A stretch of DNA of 64,000 nt. Origin: Burkholderiales bacterium (GTDB taxonomy: Bacteria > Pseudomonadota > Gammaproteobacteria > Burkholderiales > SG8-39). This document shows, one piece after another, positions 16,498 through 24,671 of the stretch. Position 1 is the stretch's first letter. Each line of letters opens with the position of its first letter. The DNA lies in NCBI GenBank assembly GCA_035459025.1, contig DATHYT010000034.1, positions 9,072 through 73,071 of the forward strand, in the 5' to 3' direction. The notes beneath the pieces were generated by a model. That model saw nothing but the letters and a program-made list of their open reading frames with translations. It was not told where the DNA came from and made no database searches. A program made the translations under genes and the position numbers.

Positions 16498-16911
16498 ATG
16501 CTCTGGGTCAAGTCGCTGCACATCATCTTCATCGTCACGTGGTTCGCGGGCCTGTTCTACCTGCCGCGGCTCTTCGTCTATCACGCGCTGTCCCCCGACA
16601 CGCTGTCGCGCGAGCGCTTCAAGCTGATGGAGCGCAAGCTCTATTGGGGCATCATGACGCCGAGCGGCGTATTGGCGCTCTTTTTCGGCCTGTGGCTGTG
16701 GCTCGGCTGGGGCTTCGGCGGGACATGGCTCACCGCCAAGCTGGCGCTCGCCGCGCTGCTCGCCGCCTACCACCTGTGGTGCGGCAAGCTGATGCGCGAC
16801 TTCCGCGACGAGCGCAACCGCCGCTCGCACGTCTGGTTCCGCTGGTTCAACGAGTTTCCGGTGCTGGTGCTCTTCGCCGCGGTCTTCCTTGCCGTCTTCA
16901 AGCCCGCCTGA
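16498..16911 (+). CDS. hemJ: protoporphyrinogen IX oxidase HemJ
   Basis: MLWVKSLHIIFIVTWFAGLFYLPRLFVYH...LYWGIMTP. 137 aa with 4 TM helices, a classic HemJ/UPF0093 sequence. Confidence 0.85.
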   Translation: MLWVKSLHIIFIVTWFAGLFYLPRLFVYHALSPDTLSRERFKLMERKLYWGIMTPSGVLALFFGLWLWLGWGFGGTWLTAKLALAALLAAYHLWCGKLMRDFRDERNRRSHVWFRWFNEFPVLVLFAAVFLAVFKPA

Positions 16912-18046
16912 GGCGTTCTTCGCCTCCTGCCCCCGGGGGCTCGAGCCGGTGCTCGCCGCGGAGCTGAGCTCCTTCGGCGCTGCCTCGCCGGCGCCTGTCG
17001 CGGGCGGGGTCGCGTTCGGCGGCAGCTGGGAAACCTGCTACCGCGCGAACCTCTGGTCACGCATTGCCTCGCGCGTGCTATGGCGCGTGGCGAGGTTCGA
17101 CTACGCATCGGAGGACGAGGTCTACGACGCGGCGCGCGCGGTGAACTGGTTCGACCTGTTCGACGTGAACCGGACGCTGCGCGTCTCCGTCACGGCGCAG
17201 AAGAGCCCGCTGAAGAGCCTGGAGTTCGCGACGCTGCGCGTGAAGGACGCGGTGTGCGACCGCTTTCGCGACGATGTCGGGCGCCGGCCCGACGTCGATC
17301 GCGCCGCGCCCGAGGTGCGCGTGCACCTGTTCCTCGAGGAAAAGCGCGGCACGCTGTACCTGGACACCTCGGGCGAAGGCCTGTTCAAGCGCGGCTGGCG
17401 CATGCAGACGGTGGAAGCGCCGCTGCGCGAGAACCTGGCGGCAGGGATCGTGATGCTGACGGGCTGGAAGTTCGACCAGCCGCTGCTCGACCCCATGTGC
17501 GGGGGCGCGACGCTGCTGGTGGAGGCCGCGGCGATGGCGCGCGGGCGCGCGCCGGGGATGAAGCGCAGCTTCGGTTTCGAAAAGCTGGATTCGTTCAATG
17601 GCGCGCTCTGGAAGTCGCTGCGCGATGAGGCGGCACAGCCGGCGGCCAAGGCGCCGAAGCTCAGGCTCTTCGGCAGCGATTCCAACGCCGCGGCGCTGAC
17701 CGCGGCGCGGCGCAACCTCGGCGCCGCGGGCGTGGAGCGCTGGGTGACGCTGGAAGCGAGCGACGTGCTCTCGCGCAAGGCGCCGGCGGATTCTGGCGTG
17801 ATGATCGCCAACCCGCCGTATGGCGAGCGCATCGGCGAGTCCGAGGAGCTGGCGCGCTTCTACCCGAAGCTCGGCGATGCGCTGAAGAGGAACTTCGCCG
17901 GCTGGAACTGCTTCTTCTTCACCGCCGATCGGCGCATGGAGAAGCTCATTCGCCTGCAGACCTCACGGCGCACGCCGCTCTACAACGGCGCGCTGGAGTG
18001 CCGGCTGTTCGAGTTCAGGATCGTGGCGGGGAGCCACCGGGACTAG
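16889..18046 (+). CDS. THUMP-domain class I SAM-dependent RNA methyltransferase (RlmL-like N6/N2 type)
   Basis: FFASCPRGLEPVLAAEL..., THUMP region, catalytic IANPPYGERIG. The only in-frame start upstream of the conserved N-terminus is TTG 16889, which gives a 23-nt overlap with hemJ. Confidence 0.8.
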   Translation: MPSSSPPEAFFASCPRGLEPVLAAELSSFGAASPAPVAGGVAFGGSWETCYRANLWSRIASRVLWRVARFDYASEDEVYDAARAVNWFDLFDVNRTLRVSVTAQKSPLKSLEFATLRVKDAVCDRFRDDVGRRPDVDRAAPEVRVHLFLEEKRGTLYLDTSGEGLFKRGWRMQTVEAPLRENLAAGIVMLTGWKFDQPLLDPMCGGATLLVEAAAMARGRAPGMKRSFGFEKLDSFNGALWKSLRDEAAQPAAKAPKLRLFGSDSNAAALTAARRNLGAAGVERWVTLEASDVLSRKAPADSGVMIANPPYGERIGESEELARFYPKLGDALKRNFAGWNCFFFTADRRMEKLIRLQTSRRTPLYNGALECRLFEFRIVAGSHRD

Positions 18047-19002
18047 TACAGCAGCGTGAGCAACCGCTCCAGCGCCGCCCGGCGCGCGGGCGGCGTCGGG
18101 GCGAGCATCTTCTCTCGCTGCAGGATCTCGAGAAGCTTGCGCGGCGCGACGTCCTTGTAGCCGACGATCTCGACGTGCCCGGCACCGACCTCGACGTTGG
18201 TCACCTGCGGAAACCGGTCGACCACCGGGTGGTATTGCTCGGCGAGGCTGAAGATGTGGTCGCTTTCGACGCAGGCGCCGTAGGCGTTGCGCCGCCGGCA
18301 GGTGCCGCGCTCGTCGGTCACCACCTTGAGGTAGCGCTGCACGGAGGGCAGCAGCGCGCCCGGCTTGCGGATGAAATCCGAGTGCTTCGTGATTTCGTAC
18401 CAGTTGTCGCCGGTGATCATCCAGCACATGCCGGGCACCGCGCCTAGGCTCAGCCAGTGCAGCGCCGTGAGGCCGCAGTTGCTCGCCACCGCAATGCCGG
18501 AGAGCGGCGCCGAGACGGTGGCGAGCCGCAGGTTCGGATCGGGGTGTCGCCACAGGTGACTGCGCTCGGCCTCGAGCGCCTTGCGCGCCACCAGGCCGCC
18601 CATGCTGTGGCCGACGAGCGTGATGCCGCCGCCGCGCAGCTTGCCATTGAGCTCGTCCAGCGCCGCGATGAGCTGCGCCGAGCTCACCATCAGGCTGTCG
18701 CGGTCGTCGTAGCTGAAGCACACGGCCTGCTGGCCGTGGAACGCGTAGAGCTGCGCCAGCGAGCGGAAATGCCCGGCCGAGCCGTTGCAGCCGTGCACCA
18801 GCACGGTCACCGGGTGGTTCGAGTTGAGGCGGATCGTGCGATCGGGCGAACCCGTGCAGGGACCCAGGCGCGGAATGTTGAGCGCCGTGTCTGGCGCCGG
18901 GAGCCGCCCCGGCTCGAGCGGCTGCGGATTGGGCACGTGCGGCGGCGAGAGCGCGCAGCCGGCGGCGAAGGCCGCCGTGAGCAAGGCGAAGGCGAGCCGC
19001 AT
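18043..19002 (-). CDS. lipoprotein, lipase/esterase-like alpha/beta hydrolase
   Basis: Lipobox LTAAFAAGC, nucleophile elbow LVGHSMGGLV, 319 aa. Its stop shares CTAG with the convergent methyltransferase stop. Confidence 0.8.
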   Translation of the reverse strand: MRLAFALLTAAFAAGCALSPPHVPNPQPLEPGRLPAPDTALNIPRLGPCTGSPDRTIRLNSNHPVTVLVHGCNGSAGHFRSLAQLYAFHGQQAVCFSYDDRDSLMVSSAQLIAALDELNGKLRGGGITLVGHSMGGLVARKALEAERSHLWRHPDPNLRLATVSAPLSGIAVASNCGLTALHWLSLGAVPGMCWMITGDNWYEITKHSDFIRKPGALLPSVQRYLKVVTDERGTCRRRNAYGACVESDHIFSLAEQYHPVVDRFPQVTNVEVGAGHVEIVGYKDVAPRKLLEILQREKMLAPTPPARRAALERLLTLLY

Positions 19003-19008
19003 GAGTCG

Positions 19009-19155
19009 CTAGCGGTCCTTGGGTCTTTCAGCCTGCGGCGCAGGCTGGCTTTCCTCCGGCTTCTTGTAATCGCCGATCACGCCCTTCAGCGGGCAGGCGG
19101 AGTACGCCGGGCACTTCTTGCAGCCGACCGCGAGGGCGACGGGGCACAGGGTCAT
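19009..19155 (-). CDS. 48-aa Cys-rich small protein (below the length cut-off of the supplied ORF track)
   Basis: Strong SD AAGGAGG 6 nt upstream of ATG 19155. Translation MTLCPVALAVGCKKCPAYSACPLKGVIGDYKKPEESQPAPQAERPKDR, TAG at 19009-19011. High GC3. Ends 6 nt before the next gene's ATG. Confidence 0.65.
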   Translation of the reverse strand: MTLCPVALAVGCKKCPAYSACPLKGVIGDYKKPEESQPAPQAERPKDR

Positions 19156-19173
19156 GGCAGTCCTCCTTCGATG

Positions 19174-19452
19174 TCAGCGGCCGCGGGGACCCCGCACCGC
19201 CGGGTTGAGGCGCTCGATGTCGGCACGCACCTGCTGCTGGCTGCGCTCGTAGACGATCTCTCGGCCCATGGCGTTGCCGGCGTAAGCCAACCCGTTTCTC
19301 GTGGGGGTGAGCGCGCAGCGCACGTTGTGCACGCCCTCGCCCAGCACCACCGTGATCACCTCGGCGCGCTTGCTGAACACCACCACGTCCAGGGTCTGGC
19401 CGGTGGCGGTGACGCGGACCTTGATTCTCTCGTCGTGCATGCCGGTGGACAC
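19174..19452 (-). CDS. hypothetical protein (88-92 aa)
   Basis: GTG 19452 lies 1 nt after the upstream stop; an alternative ATG is at 19440. The translation is beta-rich (IKVRVTATGQTLDVVVFSKRAEVITVVLGEG). No family recognised. Coding-like GC3. Confidence 0.6.
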   Translation of the reverse strand: MSTGMHDERIKVRVTATGQTLDVVVFSKRAEVITVVLGEGVHNVRCALTPTRNGLAYAGNAMGREIVYERSQQQVRADIERLNPAVRGPRGR

Positions 19453-19453
19453 T

Positions 19454-20392
19454 CTACAGCTTTGCGCGGAACTGCAGGTAATCCAGGGCCGCTCTTTCCG
19501 GCGCCTCGATCATCGGCACGTGCCCCACGCCCTGCATCATGACCACGTCGGACTTGATCAGCAGCATCTGCAGGATGCCAGCGGTCCCGGGATGCAGCAC
19601 CCGGTCCTGCTGGCCCCAGACCACGAGCGACGGCACGGCGAGGCCGCGGATGCGCTCCTCCACCGAGTCGGCGGCGAGCTGCTTCAGGATGCGCGCCTCG
19701 AGCGCGTAGTTCCTGACGCGCTCCTGCGCCACCACGTCGAGAAACGGCCGCGGGATCATCAGCGGCTTCGCCGTGAGCAGCGAGACCAAATGCGCGAAGT
19801 CGTCCTCGTCCTGCACCAGCATCGGGTTTTCGCCCGTTTCCGACACCCTCCTGAGCACTTCGCTCGGCGGCGCGCTCCACACGCCTGCGGCGCTGAGCAG
19901 CCACAGGCTCTCGACTTCCCTGGGATGCAGCGCGGCGTAGGTGAGGGCGATGTGCCCGCCCATGGAGTTGCCGCCGAGGTGCAGCTTCGACACGCCGAGC
20001 GCGCGAGCGAAGGCGCGCAGGCGCTCGGCCTGCGCGGGCGGCGCGTAGTCGGCCTGCGGCGGTTTGGAGGATTCGCCGAAGCCGATGTGGTCGGGCACGA
20101 TGACGCGAAAGCGCGGCGTGAGGTACTTGGCGACGCGCGTGAAGTTGTCCTTGTTGCCGCCGAAGCCGTGCAGCAGGAGGAGCGGCGCGCCCCGGCCGCC
20201 TTCCAGGTAGACGTAGGTCAGGCCGTTGGCGAGCGTGAGCTCCCTGCGCTCGAGCCCGGCGAGGCGCCGCTCGTATTCGAGCGCGACACGCACCGCGCGC
20301 TCGGGAGCGGCGGTGTACAGGTACACGCCCGCGCCCAGCACGAGCGCGCCCAGCACGCCCAGGGCGGCCAGCACCCACTTCAGGACGCGCAT
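19454..20392 (-). CDS. membrane-anchored alpha/beta fold hydrolase
   Basis: ATG 20392 overlaps the upstream stop (TGATG). N-terminal TM (VLAALGVLGALVLGAGVYLY), oxyanion LLLLHGFGG, elbow LGGNSMGG, catalytic His in GVGHVPMIE. Confidence 0.85.
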   Translation of the reverse strand: MRVLKWVLAALGVLGALVLGAGVYLYTAAPERAVRVALEYERRLAGLERRELTLANGLTYVYLEGGRGAPLLLLHGFGGNKDNFTRVAKYLTPRFRVIVPDHIGFGESSKPPQADYAPPAQAERLRAFARALGVSKLHLGGNSMGGHIALTYAALHPREVESLWLLSAAGVWSAPPSEVLRRVSETGENPMLVQDEDDFAHLVSLLTAKPLMIPRPFLDVVAQERVRNYALEARILKQLAADSVEERIRGLAVPSLVVWGQQDRVLHPGTAGILQMLLIKSDVVMMQGVGHVPMIEAPERAALDYLQFRAKL

Positions 20393-20844
20393 CAGCCGAA
20401 AAAGCCGATGCCGCGCGCCGTCATGGCGGCGCAGGCGAGGATCAGCACGATGCCGACCAGCTCGAGGTGCATCAGGCGCAGCAACCGGCGGCGCCGCGCC
20501 TCGCTCAGCACCGGCGCGTGCCCCTGGCGCAGGGCGCCGCGCCACGACATGAACTCGAGCGTCGGCGGAATCGACGCGAGGCCCACGCCGAGGAACAGCA
20601 CCAGCTTGGCGAGGAACGGCCAGCTGTGGAAGTAGTAGCTCGCGCCCTTCTCGAGATAGAACACGCGCAGCAGCCCGACGAGCAGCACCACGCCCGAGGA
20701 CAGGCCGAAGAACATGTCGGTGAGCTGCAGGCGCCGCGCGGCGCGCACGCCGAGCTCGCCCCGGATAAGAACGAACTCGATCGCCAGCGTCGCCACCAGC
20801 GTGAACGCGGCGAGGTGGTGCAGGAATGCGAGCAGCGTGCCCAT
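20392..20844 (-). CDS. DUF2214-like 4-TM membrane protein
   Basis: 150 aa: MGTLLAFLHHLAAFTLVATLAIEFVL... with four hydrophobic helices. The family name is recalled. Confidence 0.7.
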   Translation of the reverse strand: MGTLLAFLHHLAAFTLVATLAIEFVLIRGELGVRAARRLQLTDMFFGLSSGVVLLVGLLRVFYLEKGASYYFHSWPFLAKLVLFLGVGLASIPPTLEFMSWRGALRQGHAPVLSEARRRRLLRLMHLELVGIVLILACAAMTARGIGFFG

Positions 20845-20847
20845 CGC

Positions 20848-21060
20848 CTACTTGCGGCCGCCGACCAGAATCAGGACCACGCCGAGGGCGATCGCGCCCA
20901 CGCCGGCCCACACCGGGACGTTGACGCGCTCTTTCGCCTTCACCGACAGCTGCACCGGCCCGAGCTTCACGTCGCGCCGCTCCTTGGTGTAGGTGAAGCC
21001 GCCGTACACGAGGCCCAGGGTGCCGGCGACGATCAGGGCGATGCCGAGGATCTTCTTCAT
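20848..21060 (-). CDS. 70-aa two-TM small membrane protein
   Basis: MKKILGIALIVAGTLGLVYGG...WAGVGAIALGVVLILVGGRK. ATG lies 7 nt after the upstream TAA. Confidence 0.65.
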   Translation of the reverse strand: MKKILGIALIVAGTLGLVYGGFTYTKERRDVKLGPVQLSVKAKERVNVPVWAGVGAIALGVVLILVGGRK

Positions 21061-21067
21061 GGCGCCA

Positions 21068-21397
21068 TTATTCCATTGCGGGAGGCGCCGCGCGCGGCCG
21101 GAAGCGCGGCCAGCGCCGCAGCCAGGTGCGCTCGACGGTGTAGATCGCGGCCGCGCCCGCCATGCCGAGCGCGAGCGCGGCGAGCAGCAGCCCCTGGCTC
21201 TGGCGCGCGTAGGCGAGGGCGGCGAGCGCCACGGCGCCGCCGACGCTCGCCAGCACGAGCGCGGTCTCCGCCGGGTGCACGTTCATCTCCAGTTGCCCGA
21301 GGCAATGCGAGCAGTCGAGGTTCATGCGTGCGATCAGGGAACGGGCGGGCTTCGTCTCGCCCAGGTCGGTGCCGCAGAGCGGGCAGCGGGTGTCCAT
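21068..21397 (-). CDS. zinc-ribbon (CPLC...CSHC) protein with two C-terminal TM helices
   Basis: 109 aa: MDTRCPLCGTDLG...LDCSHCLGQL, then ALVLASVGGAVALAALAY and LLLAALALGMAGAAAIY. High GC3. Confidence 0.6.
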   Translation of the reverse strand: MDTRCPLCGTDLGETKPARSLIARMNLDCSHCLGQLEMNVHPAETALVLASVGGAVALAALAYARQSQGLLLAALALGMAGAAAIYTVERTWLRRWPRFRPRAAPPAME

Positions 21398-21404
21398 CAG
21401 TGGC

Positions 21405-21728
21405 TCAGGCCCCGGGGAGGTTCAGGTCCTGAACCGAGAAGTCGCGCCGGCACTGCGCGCAACGGTAGCGCCGGCGCCCGAGCAGCGCGGCGGCCTGCGC
21501 GCGCTGGCGCGGACGCAGGTAGATCCAGGCGGCGAGGGCGATGACGGCGAGCACGGCGTACGGCTCGCCGGTGTCCGGCGTCGCCCACAGGAAGGCGAGC
21601 AAGCAGGCCAGGGCGACCCAGAGCAGCAGCTCGACCGCGACATAGCGCGCGGCGCTGAAGCTCGGGTCCGGCGGGTCCTCGTAGCGCAGCAGGAAGCCGC
21701 AGGCCGGGCAGGTCTTCGCCTCCTGCAC
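21405..21728 (-). CDS. split zinc-ribbon membrane protein (N-terminal CPAC and C-terminal CAQC flanking two TM helices)
   Basis: GTG start 15 nt after the pilU stop, with no clear SD. 107 aa: MQEAKTCPACGF...two TM...YRCAQCRRDF. High GC3. Confidence 0.55.
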   Translation of the reverse strand: MQEAKTCPACGFLLRYEDPPDPSFSAARYVAVELLLWVALACLLAFLWATPDTGEPYAVLAVIALAAWIYLRPRQRAQAAALLGRRRYRCAQCRRDFSVQDLNLPGA

Positions 21729-21743
21729 CGCCGGGCGCGCGCG

Positions 21744-22880
21744 CTACACGATGTCGAGATGCTCGATGCCCTTGGACAGGTCCTTGTCCTTGGCTTCCTT
21801 GCCGTGCAGCTTGATGGCGAGGCGCACCTCGTTGGTCGAATCGGCGAACCGCAGCGCGTCCTCGTAGCCGATGCGCCCCTGCTCGTAGAGGTCGAACAGC
21901 GCCTGGTCGAAGGTCTGCATGCCCAGCTCCCTCGACTTCTTCATGATCTCCTTGATGCCGTGCACCTCGCCCTTGAAGATCAGGTCGCCGATCAGGGGCG
22001 AATTGAGCAGCACCTCCACCGCGGCGGCGCGCCCGCGCCCCTCCTTCACCGGGATCAGGCGCTGCGAGATCACCGCCTTCAGGTTGAGCGACAGGTCCAT
22101 CAGCAGCTGCTGGCGGCGCTCCTCGGGGAAGAAGTTGATGATCCGGTCCATCGCCTGGTTGGAGTTGTTGGCGTGCAGCGTTCCCAGGCACAGGTGACCG
22201 GTCTCGGCGAAGGCGATGGCGTGCTCCATCACCTCGCGGTCGCGGATCTCGCCGATCAGGATCACATCGGGCGCCTGGCGCAGCGTGTTCTTCAGCGCCG
22301 CCTCCCAGGAGTCGGTGTCCACGCCCACCTCGCGCTGCGTGATGATGCAGTTCTTGTGCGGATGCACGTACTCCACCGGGTCCTCGATGGTGATGATGTG
22401 GCCATGCGAGTTCTCGTTGCGGTAGCCGATCATCGCTGCGAGCGAGGTCGACTTGCCCGAGCCCGTGCCGCCGACGAAGATCACGAGCCCGCGCTTGGTC
22501 ATCGCCACGTCCCTCAGCACCGGCGGCAGCTTCAAGTCCTCGAAGTTCGGAATCGTGGTGGTGATGACGCGCAGCACCATGCCGACATTGCCCTGCTGCA
22601 CGAACGTGTTGACGCGAAAGCGCCCGATGCCCGCCGGGTTGATGGCGAAGTTGCACTCCTTCTTCGATTCGAACTCGGCTGCCTGCTTGTCGTTCATGAT
22701 CGAGCGCGCGAGCATCGAGGTATGCTGCGGCGACAACCCCTGCTGCGACACCGGCGTCATCTTGCCGTCGATCTTCATCGCCGGCGGGTAGCCGGTGGTG
22801 ATGAACAGGTCCGAGCCCTTCTTCGCGACCAGGGCGCGCAGCAGGTCGTACATGAACTTGGTGGCTTGTTCGCGTTCCAT
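21744..22880 (-). CDS. pilU: type IV pilus retraction ATPase PilU
   Basis: KGSDLFITTGYPPAMKIDGK, Walker A GGTGSGKST, GEIRDREVMEHAIAFAETGHLCLGTLHANN. Confidence 0.92.
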   Translation of the reverse strand: MEREQATKFMYDLLRALVAKKGSDLFITTGYPPAMKIDGKMTPVSQQGLSPQHTSMLARSIMNDKQAAEFESKKECNFAINPAGIGRFRVNTFVQQGNVGMVLRVITTTIPNFEDLKLPPVLRDVAMTKRGLVIFVGGTGSGKSTSLAAMIGYRNENSHGHIITIEDPVEYVHPHKNCIITQREVGVDTDSWEAALKNTLRQAPDVILIGEIRDREVMEHAIAFAETGHLCLGTLHANNSNQAMDRIINFFPEERRQQLLMDLSLNLKAVISQRLIPVKEGRGRAAAVEVLLNSPLIGDLIFKGEVHGIKEIMKKSRELGMQTFDQALFDLYEQGRIGYEDALRFADSTNEVRLAIKLHGKEAKDKDLSKGIEHLDIV

Positions 22881-22908
22881 CGCGTTCTCCTACGCTGTGC
22901 TTGCCGTC

Positions 22909-23952
22909 TCAGCCGGCAAAGGCATCCTTGTTCATCGCCTTGCCGCGCGCCTCGCCCATCGACACCACGTTGCGCCGCACGAGGTCCTGCAGGTTCTGGT
23001 CGAGCGTCTGCATGCCGATCTGCGCGCCGGTCTGGATCGCCGAGTACATCTGCGCGATCTTGTTCTCGCGGATCAGGTTGCGGATCGCCGGCGTGCCGAT
23101 CATGATCTCGTGCGCCGCGACGCGTCCCGCGCCGTCCTTGGTCTTCAGCAGCGTCTGCGAAATCACCGCGCGCAAGCTTTCCGAGAGCATGGCGCGCACC
23201 ATTTCCTTCTCGGCCGCGGGAAACACGTCGACGATGCGGTCCACGGTCTTCGCCGCGCTGCTCGTGTGCAGCGTGCCGAACACCAAGTGTCCGGTTTCCG
23301 CGCCGGTGAGCGCCAGGCGGATGGTCTCCAGGTCGCGCATCTCGCCCACCAGGATCGAGTCCGGGTCCTCGCGCAGCGCGCTCCTCAGCGCGTTGGAGAA
23401 CGACAGCGTGTGCGGCCCGACCTCGCGCTGGTTGATCAGGCATTTCTTGGACTCGTGCACGAACTCGATCGGGTCCTCGATGGTGAGGATGTGGCCTTCC
23501 TCGTTCTCGTTGATGTGGTTGATCATCGCCGCGAGCGTCGTCGACTTGCCCGAGCCCGTCGGCCCGGTCACCAGCACGATGCCGCGCGGGTATTCCGAGA
23601 TCTCGGTGAAGATCTTCGGGCATTTCAGCTCCTCGAGCGACAGCACCTTGGTCGGGATGGTCCGCAGCACCGCGGCGGCGCCGCGCTGCTGCACGAAGGC
23701 ATTGACGCGAAAGCGCGCGAGGTTGGGCACGGCGAAGGAGAAGTCGCACTCCAGGTTCTCCTCGTAGAACTTGCGCTGCCCGTCGTTCATGATGTCGTAG
23801 ATCATGCTGTGCACGTCCTTGTGCTCCAGCGCGGGGACGTTGATGCGCTTGACGTCGCCGTGCACGCGCACCATCGGCGGCAGGCCCGAGGACAAGTGCA
23901 GGTCCGAGGCCTTGTTCTTGACGACAAACGCAAGCAATTCAGTGAGATCCAT
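22909..23952 (-). CDS. pilT: type IV pilus twitching-motility ATPase PilT
   Basis: Conserved N-terminus MDLTELLAFVVKNKASDLHLSSGLPPMVRVHGD starts at ATG 23952. The track ORF adds 24 unconserved codons. GPTGSGKST, VGEMRDLETI, GHLVFGTLHT. Confidence 0.93.
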   Translation of the reverse strand: MDLTELLAFVVKNKASDLHLSSGLPPMVRVHGDVKRINVPALEHKDVHSMIYDIMNDGQRKFYEENLECDFSFAVPNLARFRVNAFVQQRGAAAVLRTIPTKVLSLEELKCPKIFTEISEYPRGIVLVTGPTGSGKSTTLAAMINHINENEEGHILTIEDPIEFVHESKKCLINQREVGPHTLSFSNALRSALREDPDSILVGEMRDLETIRLALTGAETGHLVFGTLHTSSAAKTVDRIVDVFPAAEKEMVRAMLSESLRAVISQTLLKTKDGAGRVAAHEIMIGTPAIRNLIRENKIAQMYSAIQTGAQIGMQTLDQNLQDLVRRNVVSMGEARGKAMNKDAFAG

Positions 23953-23984
23953 TACAATCCCCCGCGAGACGGTCCGGGCAAAGT

Positions 23985-24671
23985 ATGGGGTCAATCGCGC
24001 AGAACTTGCAAGCCGTGAAGTCACGCATCGCCGAGGCCGAACGCGTCGCAGGACGCGCCCCGGGCGTGGTGGCGCTGCTCGCGGTGTCCAAGACCCATGC
24101 GCCGGAGCGGATCGGCGAGGCCTGCGCCGCCGGCCAGCGCGCGTTCGGCGAGAACTATGTCCAGGAGGCGCTCGACAAGATGGCGCACCTCGCCGCGCTG
24201 CCGCTCGAATGGCACCTCGTGGGGCCGCTCCAGAGCAACAAGACGCGCGCGGTGGCCGAGCGCTTCGACTGGGTGCACACCGTGGACCGCGAAAAGACCG
24301 CGCGGCGCCTTGCCGAGCAGCGCCCGGCGGGGCGGGCGCCGCTCAACGTGCTGATCCAGGTGAACGTCTCGGGCGAGGCGTCCAAGAGCGGCGTCGCGCC
24401 GGCGCAGGCGGCCGCGCTGGCCGCGGCGATCGCACCGCTCAAGAACCTGCGTCTGCGGGGGTTGATGGCGATTCCGGAGCCCGGCGCGCCACCGTCGCGC
24501 TTCACCGAGATCGGCGCCCTGTTCGAGGGGCTGCGGGGCGAGTTCGGGCTGGACACGCTGTCGCTGGGCATGAGCGAGGACTTGGAGGCGGCGATCGCCG
24601 CGGGCTCCACCATGGTCAGGATCGGCACCGCGATCTTCGGGGAGCGGCGCAAGGTGAGGCACGCGGCATGA
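23985..24671 (+). CDS. yggS: YggS-family pyridoxal-phosphate homeostasis protein
   Basis: LLAVSKTHAPERI (PLP Lys), FGENYVQE, WHLVGPLQSNK, SLGMSEDLEAAI. Divergent from pilT, as in many proteobacteria. Confidence 0.9.
   Translation: MGSIAQNLQAVKSRIAEAERVAGRAPGVVALLAVSKTHAPERIGEACAAGQRAFGENYVQEALDKMAHLAALPLEWHLVGPLQSNKTRAVAERFDWVHTVDREKTARRLAEQRPAGRAPLNVLIQVNVSGEASKSGVAPAQAAALAAAIAPLKNLRLRGLMAIPEPGAPPSRFTEIGALFEGLRGEFGLDTLSLGMSEDLEAAIAAGSTMVRIGTAIFGERRKVRHAA

Follow-up and report, generated by a model that had tools for sequence, protein, structure and literature searches.

Spots and hotspots located between contiguous core genes have been described, and many of them contain no mobile elements (Oliveira, Touchon and Rocha 2017, Nat Commun; PMC5635113). 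In Pseudomonas aeruginosa, the inner-membrane phospholipase A1 PlaF (PA2949; PDB 6I8W) has a transmembrane (TM) helix, alphaTM1, at L5-L27 and a following juxtamembrane helix, alphaJM1, at A28-L37, and its catalytic domain faces the periplasm (PMC9132575). In this study, a locus was analysed and compared with both. It lies in a stretch of 64,000 nucleotides (nt) from a Burkholderiales bacterium (assembly GCA_035459025.1, contig DATHYT010000034.1, positions 9,072 to 73,071 of the forward strand), hereafter the window. At positions 18043-21728 of the window, eight minus-strand open reading frames (ORFs), g1 to g8, stand directly behind pilT-pilU.

The original prediction had taken these eight genes for an envelope, lipid or pilus-associated remodelling module. 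The comparison reported here did not bear this out, since subsets of the genes vary freely within the genus, their homologues are scattered outside it, and the junction at which they sit is ancestral. The interval is probably a variable, lineage-specific spot of accessory-gene turnover at an operon tail, without marks of a mobile element, rather than a dedicated pilus or envelope machine.

Gene content within the genus

A total of 25 species of one uncultured Burkholderiales genus (this genome and 24 species representatives) were compared, and the genes were located by tblastn. The loci were collected with g6 as the anchor, so that the ubiquity of g6 is partly by construction. Most of the genomes are fragmented metagenome-assembled genomes (MAGs), and a few presence or absence calls are limited by contig ends. 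The flanks were constant throughout the genus: yggS, pilT and pilU were on one side and, where contigs reach, a convergent methyltransferase gene was on the other. Between these flanks the content differed widely. The anchor g6 was present in all 25 species and g5 in 24, followed by g2 (18), g7 (17), g3 (14), g4 (13), g1 (10), and g8 (4). The complete eight-gene set was found in this genome and its closest relative, G018, only (2 of 25).

Among the 20 scored species with a complete locus, 14 distinct content patterns were observed. Fitch parsimony, run on a tree built from the flanking genes by maximum likelihood, required at least 26 gain or loss steps, a count that depends on that tree. At least six changes, by loss or movement, were assigned to g3, and at least seven gains or losses to g4; most of them were losses. 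The reconstruction placed g2 to g7 at the root of the genus and g8 as a later gain.

Gene order was largely kept in the genus. The exceptions were g2, which stood at the methyltransferase end in three species (G005, G017, and G019), and g3, which did so in two (G007 and G012). The displaced copies were among the most divergent, with identities of 42-50% for g2 (L016, L017, and L021) and 65-66% for g3 (L027 and L030). Either rearrangement or separate acquisition could account for these copies.

Unrelated genes were interleaved in some species, with products assigned to DUF2652, GNAT, O-methyltransferase, cytochrome b561, TPR-GT41 glycosyltransferase, and DUF1805-like families. At least nine unrelated extra gene families were counted in the interval across the genus. 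In the long-contig MAG G017 (L017, G017:C9:317386-337385), yggS, g5, g2, and the methyltransferase gene were all split by frameshifts, which looks like an assembly indel error rather than real pseudogenes.

The junction between pilU and the methyltransferase gene

The adjacency of pilU and the methyltransferase gene was not limited to the genus but was also found in two sister genera and a further family. The identity of pilU was 92-98% among congeners and 78-89% outside the genus, in further genera and families. In G027, which belongs to another family, the two genes were separated by a spacer of 93 bp, corresponding to an empty site. In one sister genus (two genomes), the interval was 1335 bp and contained genes for a DHDPS-family and an ArfB-like protein; in a second sister genus, it was 978 bp and contained a DUF423 gene. 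Because pilU and the methyltransferase gene are adjacent beyond the genus with empty or other content between them, the junction is ancestral and its cargo is lineage-specific. No link between the array and pilU was found outside the genus, the junction being empty or otherwise filled in the relatives examined. An inverted repeat was spotted by eye in the 93-bp spacer of G027.

Homologues outside the genus

The distribution of g6 was investigated by using a g6 alignment to scan genomes, with one taken for each GTDB species. Of at least 579 loci, 80 were examined, and 60 of these were outside the genus. Within up to 10 kb on each side of the 60 loci, neither pilTU nor any of the other seven array genes was found. 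No neighbour was recurrent there; the commonest, a predicted exported protein of 327 amino acids (aa), was seen at 10 of the 60.

The other families were searched in an evenly sampled set of 150 genomes of the order, with a threshold of E <= 1e-40 for g5-like proteins. Homologues were found in 32 genomes for g4, 26 for g3, 18 for g7, seven for g5 (at most 44% identity), five for g8, one for g2, and none for g1. The lone g2 hit was weak and had an internal stop, and for g1 there were two marginal hits, neither of them credible. When coordinates were compared genome by genome, no two array families were adjacent in this sample. Where g4 and g5 co-occurred, they were on separate contigs or 69-117 kb apart.

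A scan of the family (34 genera, 150 genomes) showed that g5 was confined to the genus, save for one truncated fragment. This fragment, in the sister-genus genome G213 (L133:8127-8672), covers residues 131-312 with 54% identity, is not located near pilU or the methyltransferase gene, and may be a relic copy. In a sample of 400 genomes of the phylum, nine PlaF-like loci were found, none with another array gene within 1.5 kb. The g8 homologues in genomes of lower guanine-plus-cytosine (GC) content were solitary. In other genomes, no small membrane partner was seen next to a homologue of g4 or g5, and no pre-assembled array was found in the same family or phylum in the samples searched. Taken together, in these samples the eight genes do not travel together outside the genus, where their homologues are scattered and never co-localised, and among the small ORFs g1 and g2 have essentially no conserved homologues. 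On these points the findings ran against the expectation of a conserved neighbourhood.

Signatures of mobile elements, defence and pili

The interval in the window contained no meaningful repeats, no repeat family and no inverted-repeat boundary. Integrase, transposase and tRNA genes were also lacking there, its ORFs all being accounted for by g1 to g8, and no integrase ORF was found between yggS and the methyltransferase gene. The spacers, of -1 to 18 nt, are too short for attC sites. An integron cassette array was rejected, as there was no attC-sized spacer, repeat family or integrase. The GC content of the array was uniform with that of its flanks (about 70% in the window). No PADLOC match to a defence family was obtained for g1 to g8, and PHROG matches were limited to generic esterase/lipase profiles for g5 and g8; a defence or phage origin was rejected on this basis. 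No pilus-related family was found among g1 to g8 in the Pfam or NCBIfam results.

Layout of the locus and reality of the genes

The coordinates of the array and its flanking genes are given in Table 1. The gaps from pilU to g1 through g7 to g8 were 15, 7, 7, 3, -1, 1, 18, and 6 nt, the -1 gap being a TGATG overlap of g4 and g5. The database homologues of g6 are 88 aa long, with the start ATG corresponding to 19440, which gives a g5-g6 gap of 13 nt instead of 1 nt. No sigma-70-like promoter was found on either strand in the region searched (16800-24400). The sole terminator-like site of the same region, at 23900-23912 (+), is outside the array. The coordinates, the gaps, the tight same-strand, operon-like packing, the absence of internal promoters and terminators, and the GNSMGG and GHSMGG motifs of g5 and g8 all agreed with the original prediction, and its statement that no described system has such a composition was upheld. 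At the far end, the g8 stop and the stop of the convergent methyltransferase gene share 4 nt (18043-18046, a CTAG palindrome), and there is no space for a terminator between the two convergent transcripts.

Table 1. Positions of the array genes and of the genes that border them in the window
Feature	Position	Strand	Description
pilT	22909..23952	-	347 aa; conserved upstream flank; divergent from yggS; 94-98% aa identity among congeners
pilU	21744..22880	-	378 aa; conserved core gene; one border of the variable interval
g1	21405..21728	-	107 aa; membrane protein
g2	21068..21397	-	109 aa; zinc ribbon and two TM segments
g3	20848..21060	-	70 aa; two-TM protein
g4	20392..20844	-	150 aa; DUF2214 membrane protein
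g5	19454..20392	-	312 aa; predicted PlaF-type/ABHD6-like alpha/beta hydrolase
g6	19174..19452	-	92 aa as called; likely true product 88 aa (19177-19440)
g7	19009..19155	-	48 aa; four-Cys peptide
g8	18043..19002	-	319 aa; lipoprotein alpha/beta hydrolase (predicted)
RlmL-type THUMP/SAM RNA methyltransferase gene	16889..18046	+	Convergent; other conserved border; Pfam UPF0020, RlmL_1st, THUMP

The source genome is a MAG of 3.35 Mb in which each of g1 to g8 is single-copy. The pairwise ratio of nonsynonymous to synonymous substitution rates (dN/dS) within the genus was below 1 for each of the eight genes and ranged from 0.18 (g6) to 0.48 (g2); for comparison, it was 0.09 for pilT and 0.18 for the methyltransferase gene. 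Because each ORF has homologues and dN/dS values of 0.18-0.48, the eight ORFs are genuine genes and not chance ORFs. The array genes are under purifying selection, and hence functional and not decaying.

The g5 product as a PlaF-type phospholipase A

The g5 product was compared with proteins of known structure. It matched P. aeruginosa PlaF (6I8W) with an E value of 1.1e-62 over residues 11-308. Other matches were 4NS4, an uncharacterised Psychrobacter hydrolase (E 2.8e-75), human ABHD6 (7OTS, E 1.4e-24), and the Acinetobacter lipase 4OPM. Meta-cleavage product hydrolases and other subfamilies matched with E values of 1e-21 or weaker, that is, behind PlaF. The Pfam match was to Abhydrolase_1 (E 1e-35). 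In the HMMER alignment to 6I8W, g5 residues S143 (in GNSMGG), D263, and H291 fell on the columns of PlaF S137, D258, and H286. The hydrophobic residues 1-29 of g5 aligned with the TM-helix region of PlaF, chain residues 6-27.

Because the match runs the full length, TM helix included, with conservation of the catalytic triad, g5 belongs with PlaF. By its sequence, g5 is a PlaF-type membrane-anchored phospholipase A with a predicted catalytic triad. The membrane-anchored alpha/beta hydrolase that had been proposed for g5 fits this PlaF-like sequence and TM helix well, and by its sequence g5 is an enzyme of a lipid-remodelling type.

The g8 product as a lipase-like lipoprotein

The g8 product has a signal sequence with the lipobox LTAAFAAGC (Cys16), a GHSMGG motif with Ser133, a conserved His276, and seven further conserved Cys. 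The Pfam matches, to PGAP1, DUF676, and Abhydrolase_6, were weak, and no match to PDB was obtained by sequence. The AlphaFold2 (AF2) model, with a predicted local distance difference test (pLDDT) score of 72, showed an alpha/beta hydrolase fold. The nearest structures to the model were BlEst2, Lipk107, Proteus lipase, and type II thioesterases, with a template modelling score (TM-score) of about 0.45. The model suggested that g8 is a divergent lipase/esterase-like lipoprotein.

The small and membrane proteins

Hydropathy analysis backed the membrane segments of the array products. In g1, an N-terminal CPxC and a C-terminal CxxC flank a hydrophobic hairpin, and both CxxC pairs were invariant in 10 orthologues. 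g1 scored 17.6 bits against DUF983 (PF06170), below the Pfam gathering cut-off of 22.6, and is not a member of that family; the resemblance amounts to a CxxC motif with two TM segments after it. The gene is restricted to this genus and fast-evolving (dN/dS 0.46). g2 has an N-terminal four-Cys zinc ribbon, whose CxxC...CxxC was invariant in congeneric orthologues, and two TM segments. A profile search with g2 found only 86 clusters among 1.84 billion representative proteins; judged from this search, g2 is a narrow lineage-specific family. g1 and g2 were considered as paralogues, and this was rejected since they have no mutual similarity.

g3 has two TM segments and weak matches to DUF202/DUF3185-like Pfam families. 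g4 has four hydrophobic segments and matched Pfam PF09980 (DUF2214) with an E value of 2e-44 and 151.4 bits, against a cut-off of 34.1, over profile positions 4-147 of 147. This full-length match confirmed the DUF2214-like character first assigned to g4. Nothing functional on DUF2214 was found in the literature. A relationship of g4 to the nearby HemJ was rejected, as there was no BLASTP similarity.

g6 is a small, soluble, beta-rich protein and the most conserved gene of the array. It has no signal peptide or TM segment and is predicted to be cytoplasmic. Its family has more than 5,500 homologues, including highly conserved proteins of 86-88 aa in Burkholderiales MAGs. No Pfam domain was found for the window copy, and none is on record among the 120 homologues listed. 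The AF2 model (pLDDT 80) consisted of six strands with a helix at the C terminus, and PDB contained no structure significantly similar to it. A PilZ or PH-like identity was rejected, as the Foldseek matches were insignificant (E > 0.1, TM-score < 0.45) and the consensus lacked the PilZ motifs RxxxR and D/NxSxxG.

g7 has four invariant Cys (C4, C12, C15, and C21) and is preceded by a strong Shine-Dalgarno sequence, GAAGGAGGA. It is a protein of 47-48 aa with the pattern MTLCPxAL..GCxKCPxxSxCPLKxVIGDY, and none of the 2,444 homologues is named. g7 is possibly a small metal-binding protein. The zinc-ribbon or Cys-rich character ascribed earlier to g1, g2, and g7 was consistent with the invariance of these Cys in congeneric orthologues.

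Proposed origin of the array

The 3' ends of pilU and the RlmL-type methyltransferase gene converge, and the interval between them would have been permissive for new genes. Insertions at an operon tail would disturb no promoter and could borrow transcription. The ancestor of the genus would have gathered here a string of unrelated accessory genes, mostly for small membrane or exported proteins. Later, gene-by-gene erosion with occasional refilling would have left each species with its own subset, the largest being the set of eight in this genome and in G018.

Because the genes are packed head to tail and promoter and terminator signals are lacking, the most likely mode of expression would be passive read-through, with the array at the 3' end of the pilTU transcript. 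A joint transcript with pilTU is plausible, being the simplest way to account for the 15-nt gap between pilU and g1 and for the missing signals. The products would act independently of each other. g5 would hydrolyse membrane glycerophospholipids on the periplasmic face, and g8 would be a separate disulfide-rich lipoprotein esterase or lipase. g3, g4, g6, and g7 are members of widespread uncharacterised families, and g1 and g2 are lineage-specific zinc-ribbon membrane proteins.

Several points weigh against turnover of independent genes. The same families occur in the same order across the genus, and g5 and g6 are nearly always retained together. The packing is tight or overlapping, with ATGA at g4/g5. 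These features are all expected of a loosely cooperating operon as well. Membrane or envelope proteins make up five or six of the eight products, a share above that of a random draw and a hint at a common theme. It is also unusual for one stem branch to collect six or seven unrelated genes at a single site. Some lineage outside the sampling may have supplied the array already assembled, as the searches covered 80 g6 loci out of at least 579, along with sets of 150-400 sampled genomes.

Alternative explanations

A smaller functional unit might exist among hitch-hiking cargo, either g5-g6 with or without g7, or g4-g5. This was suggested by the joint presence of g5 and g6 in 24 of the 25 species, in 17 of which g7 was with them, and by the g4-g5 junction, where stop and start overlap (TGATG) in this genome and are 2 nt apart in several congeners. 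However, the first of these counts is partly by construction, g6 being the anchor, and g6 was solitary at the 60 loci outside the genus. In three species (G016, G014, and G010; L015:9130-9981 (+) and the equivalents in L012 and L029), the g5 and g6 orthologues have a DUF2652 gene of about 285 aa exactly between them, and in G024 g5 was deleted and g6 retained. g4 was absent beside g5 in about half of the species, and g5 homologues elsewhere have no g4, g6, or g7 nearby. Direct contact of g5 and g6 is also unlikely, since g6 has no signal peptide or TM segment and PlaF has its catalytic domain on the periplasmic side (PMC9132575). A smaller unit of this kind is therefore considered unlikely.

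The eight genes could instead form one envelope, lipid or pilus remodelling module that is co-expressed with the pilus retraction ATPases, in which the small membrane proteins serve as partners or regulators of the hydrolases. The tight same-strand layout without promoter or terminator signals, the order conserved in the genus, the predicted PlaF-type g5 and lipase-like lipoprotein g8, and the membrane location of most products are all in line with such a module. However, all eight genes are together in two of 25 congeners, g8 is in four, g3 and g4 each changed at least six or seven times, mostly by loss, and unrelated genes are inserted between the members. No adjacent pair was found anywhere outside the genus in the samples searched, related genera have the site beside pilU empty or filled with other cargo, and none of the products belongs to a pilus family. 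Because the genes behave as individually dispensable in the genus and are scattered outside it, the array is not one module, and its position behind pilTU gives no functional link to the pilus. A single module of eight genes is accordingly judged very unlikely. There is equally little chance that g5-g6-g7 on the pilTU transcript form a unit coupling phospholipid remodelling to the type IV pilus retraction motors, with g6 and g7 as regulators.

A remnant of a mobile element or integron-like cassette array inserted downstream of pilU is extremely improbable: the short same-strand genes, their variable presence, and the displacement of g2 and g3, in some species, to the far end are cassette-like, but gaps of -1 to 18 nt leave no room for attC, and no repeats or inverted-repeat boundary, integrase, transposase, tRNA, GC deviation from the flanks or specific phage or defence match was found. 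Turnover of independent accessory genes at the operon tail is the preferred reading of the interval.

Significance and comparison with described systems

The locus has cautionary value. A compact operon-like string behind a known operon can mimic a new system and yet be a lineage-specific pile-up of independent genes. In uncultured Burkholderiales of soil and groundwater, it also illustrates cleanly how whole genes are lost singly from a tightly packed operon tail. It draws attention to abundant small-protein families without a name, namely the 88-aa g6, the four-Cys g7, and DUF2214. A phospholipase that appears to be of PlaF type is added from a betaproteobacterial genus, such enzymes being rare in the samples of its family, order, and phylum.

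The g5 product shares with PlaF and human ABHD6 its length, an N-terminal TM helix, the juxtamembrane segment after it, and a lidded alpha/beta hydrolase domain. Unlike PlaF itself, it stands in a different genomic context, and its match to PlaF, which is strong but far from identical, marks it as a distant family member. The nearest solved relative of g5 by sequence is 4NS4, not PlaF. The g8 product resembles bacterial secreted or surface lipases, such as Bacillus licheniformis BlEst2 (6WPY) and Proteus mirabilis lipase (4GW3), as well as PGAP1 and DUF676 proteins, in its alpha/beta core, GHSMGG elbow, C-terminal His, and predicted export. Unlike BlEst2 and the Proteus lipase, from which it is distant (TM-score about 0.45, 14-17% identity), g8 is a putative lipoprotein with seven additional conserved Cys.

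The interval as a whole was compared with the spots described earlier (PMC5635113). The comparison here was made between species of a MAG genus and not between strains of a species. Much of the variation here is differential loss from an ordered ancestral set and not wholesale replacement, and the packing of the genes, by which the array apparently prolongs the pilTU operon at its 3' end, also sets the locus apart from those spots. Consistent with them, the same two core genes border the interval across the clade, content is rapidly gained and lost, and no integrase, prophage or integron is present. Related genera likewise carry different cargo, and an empty site was seen in another family.

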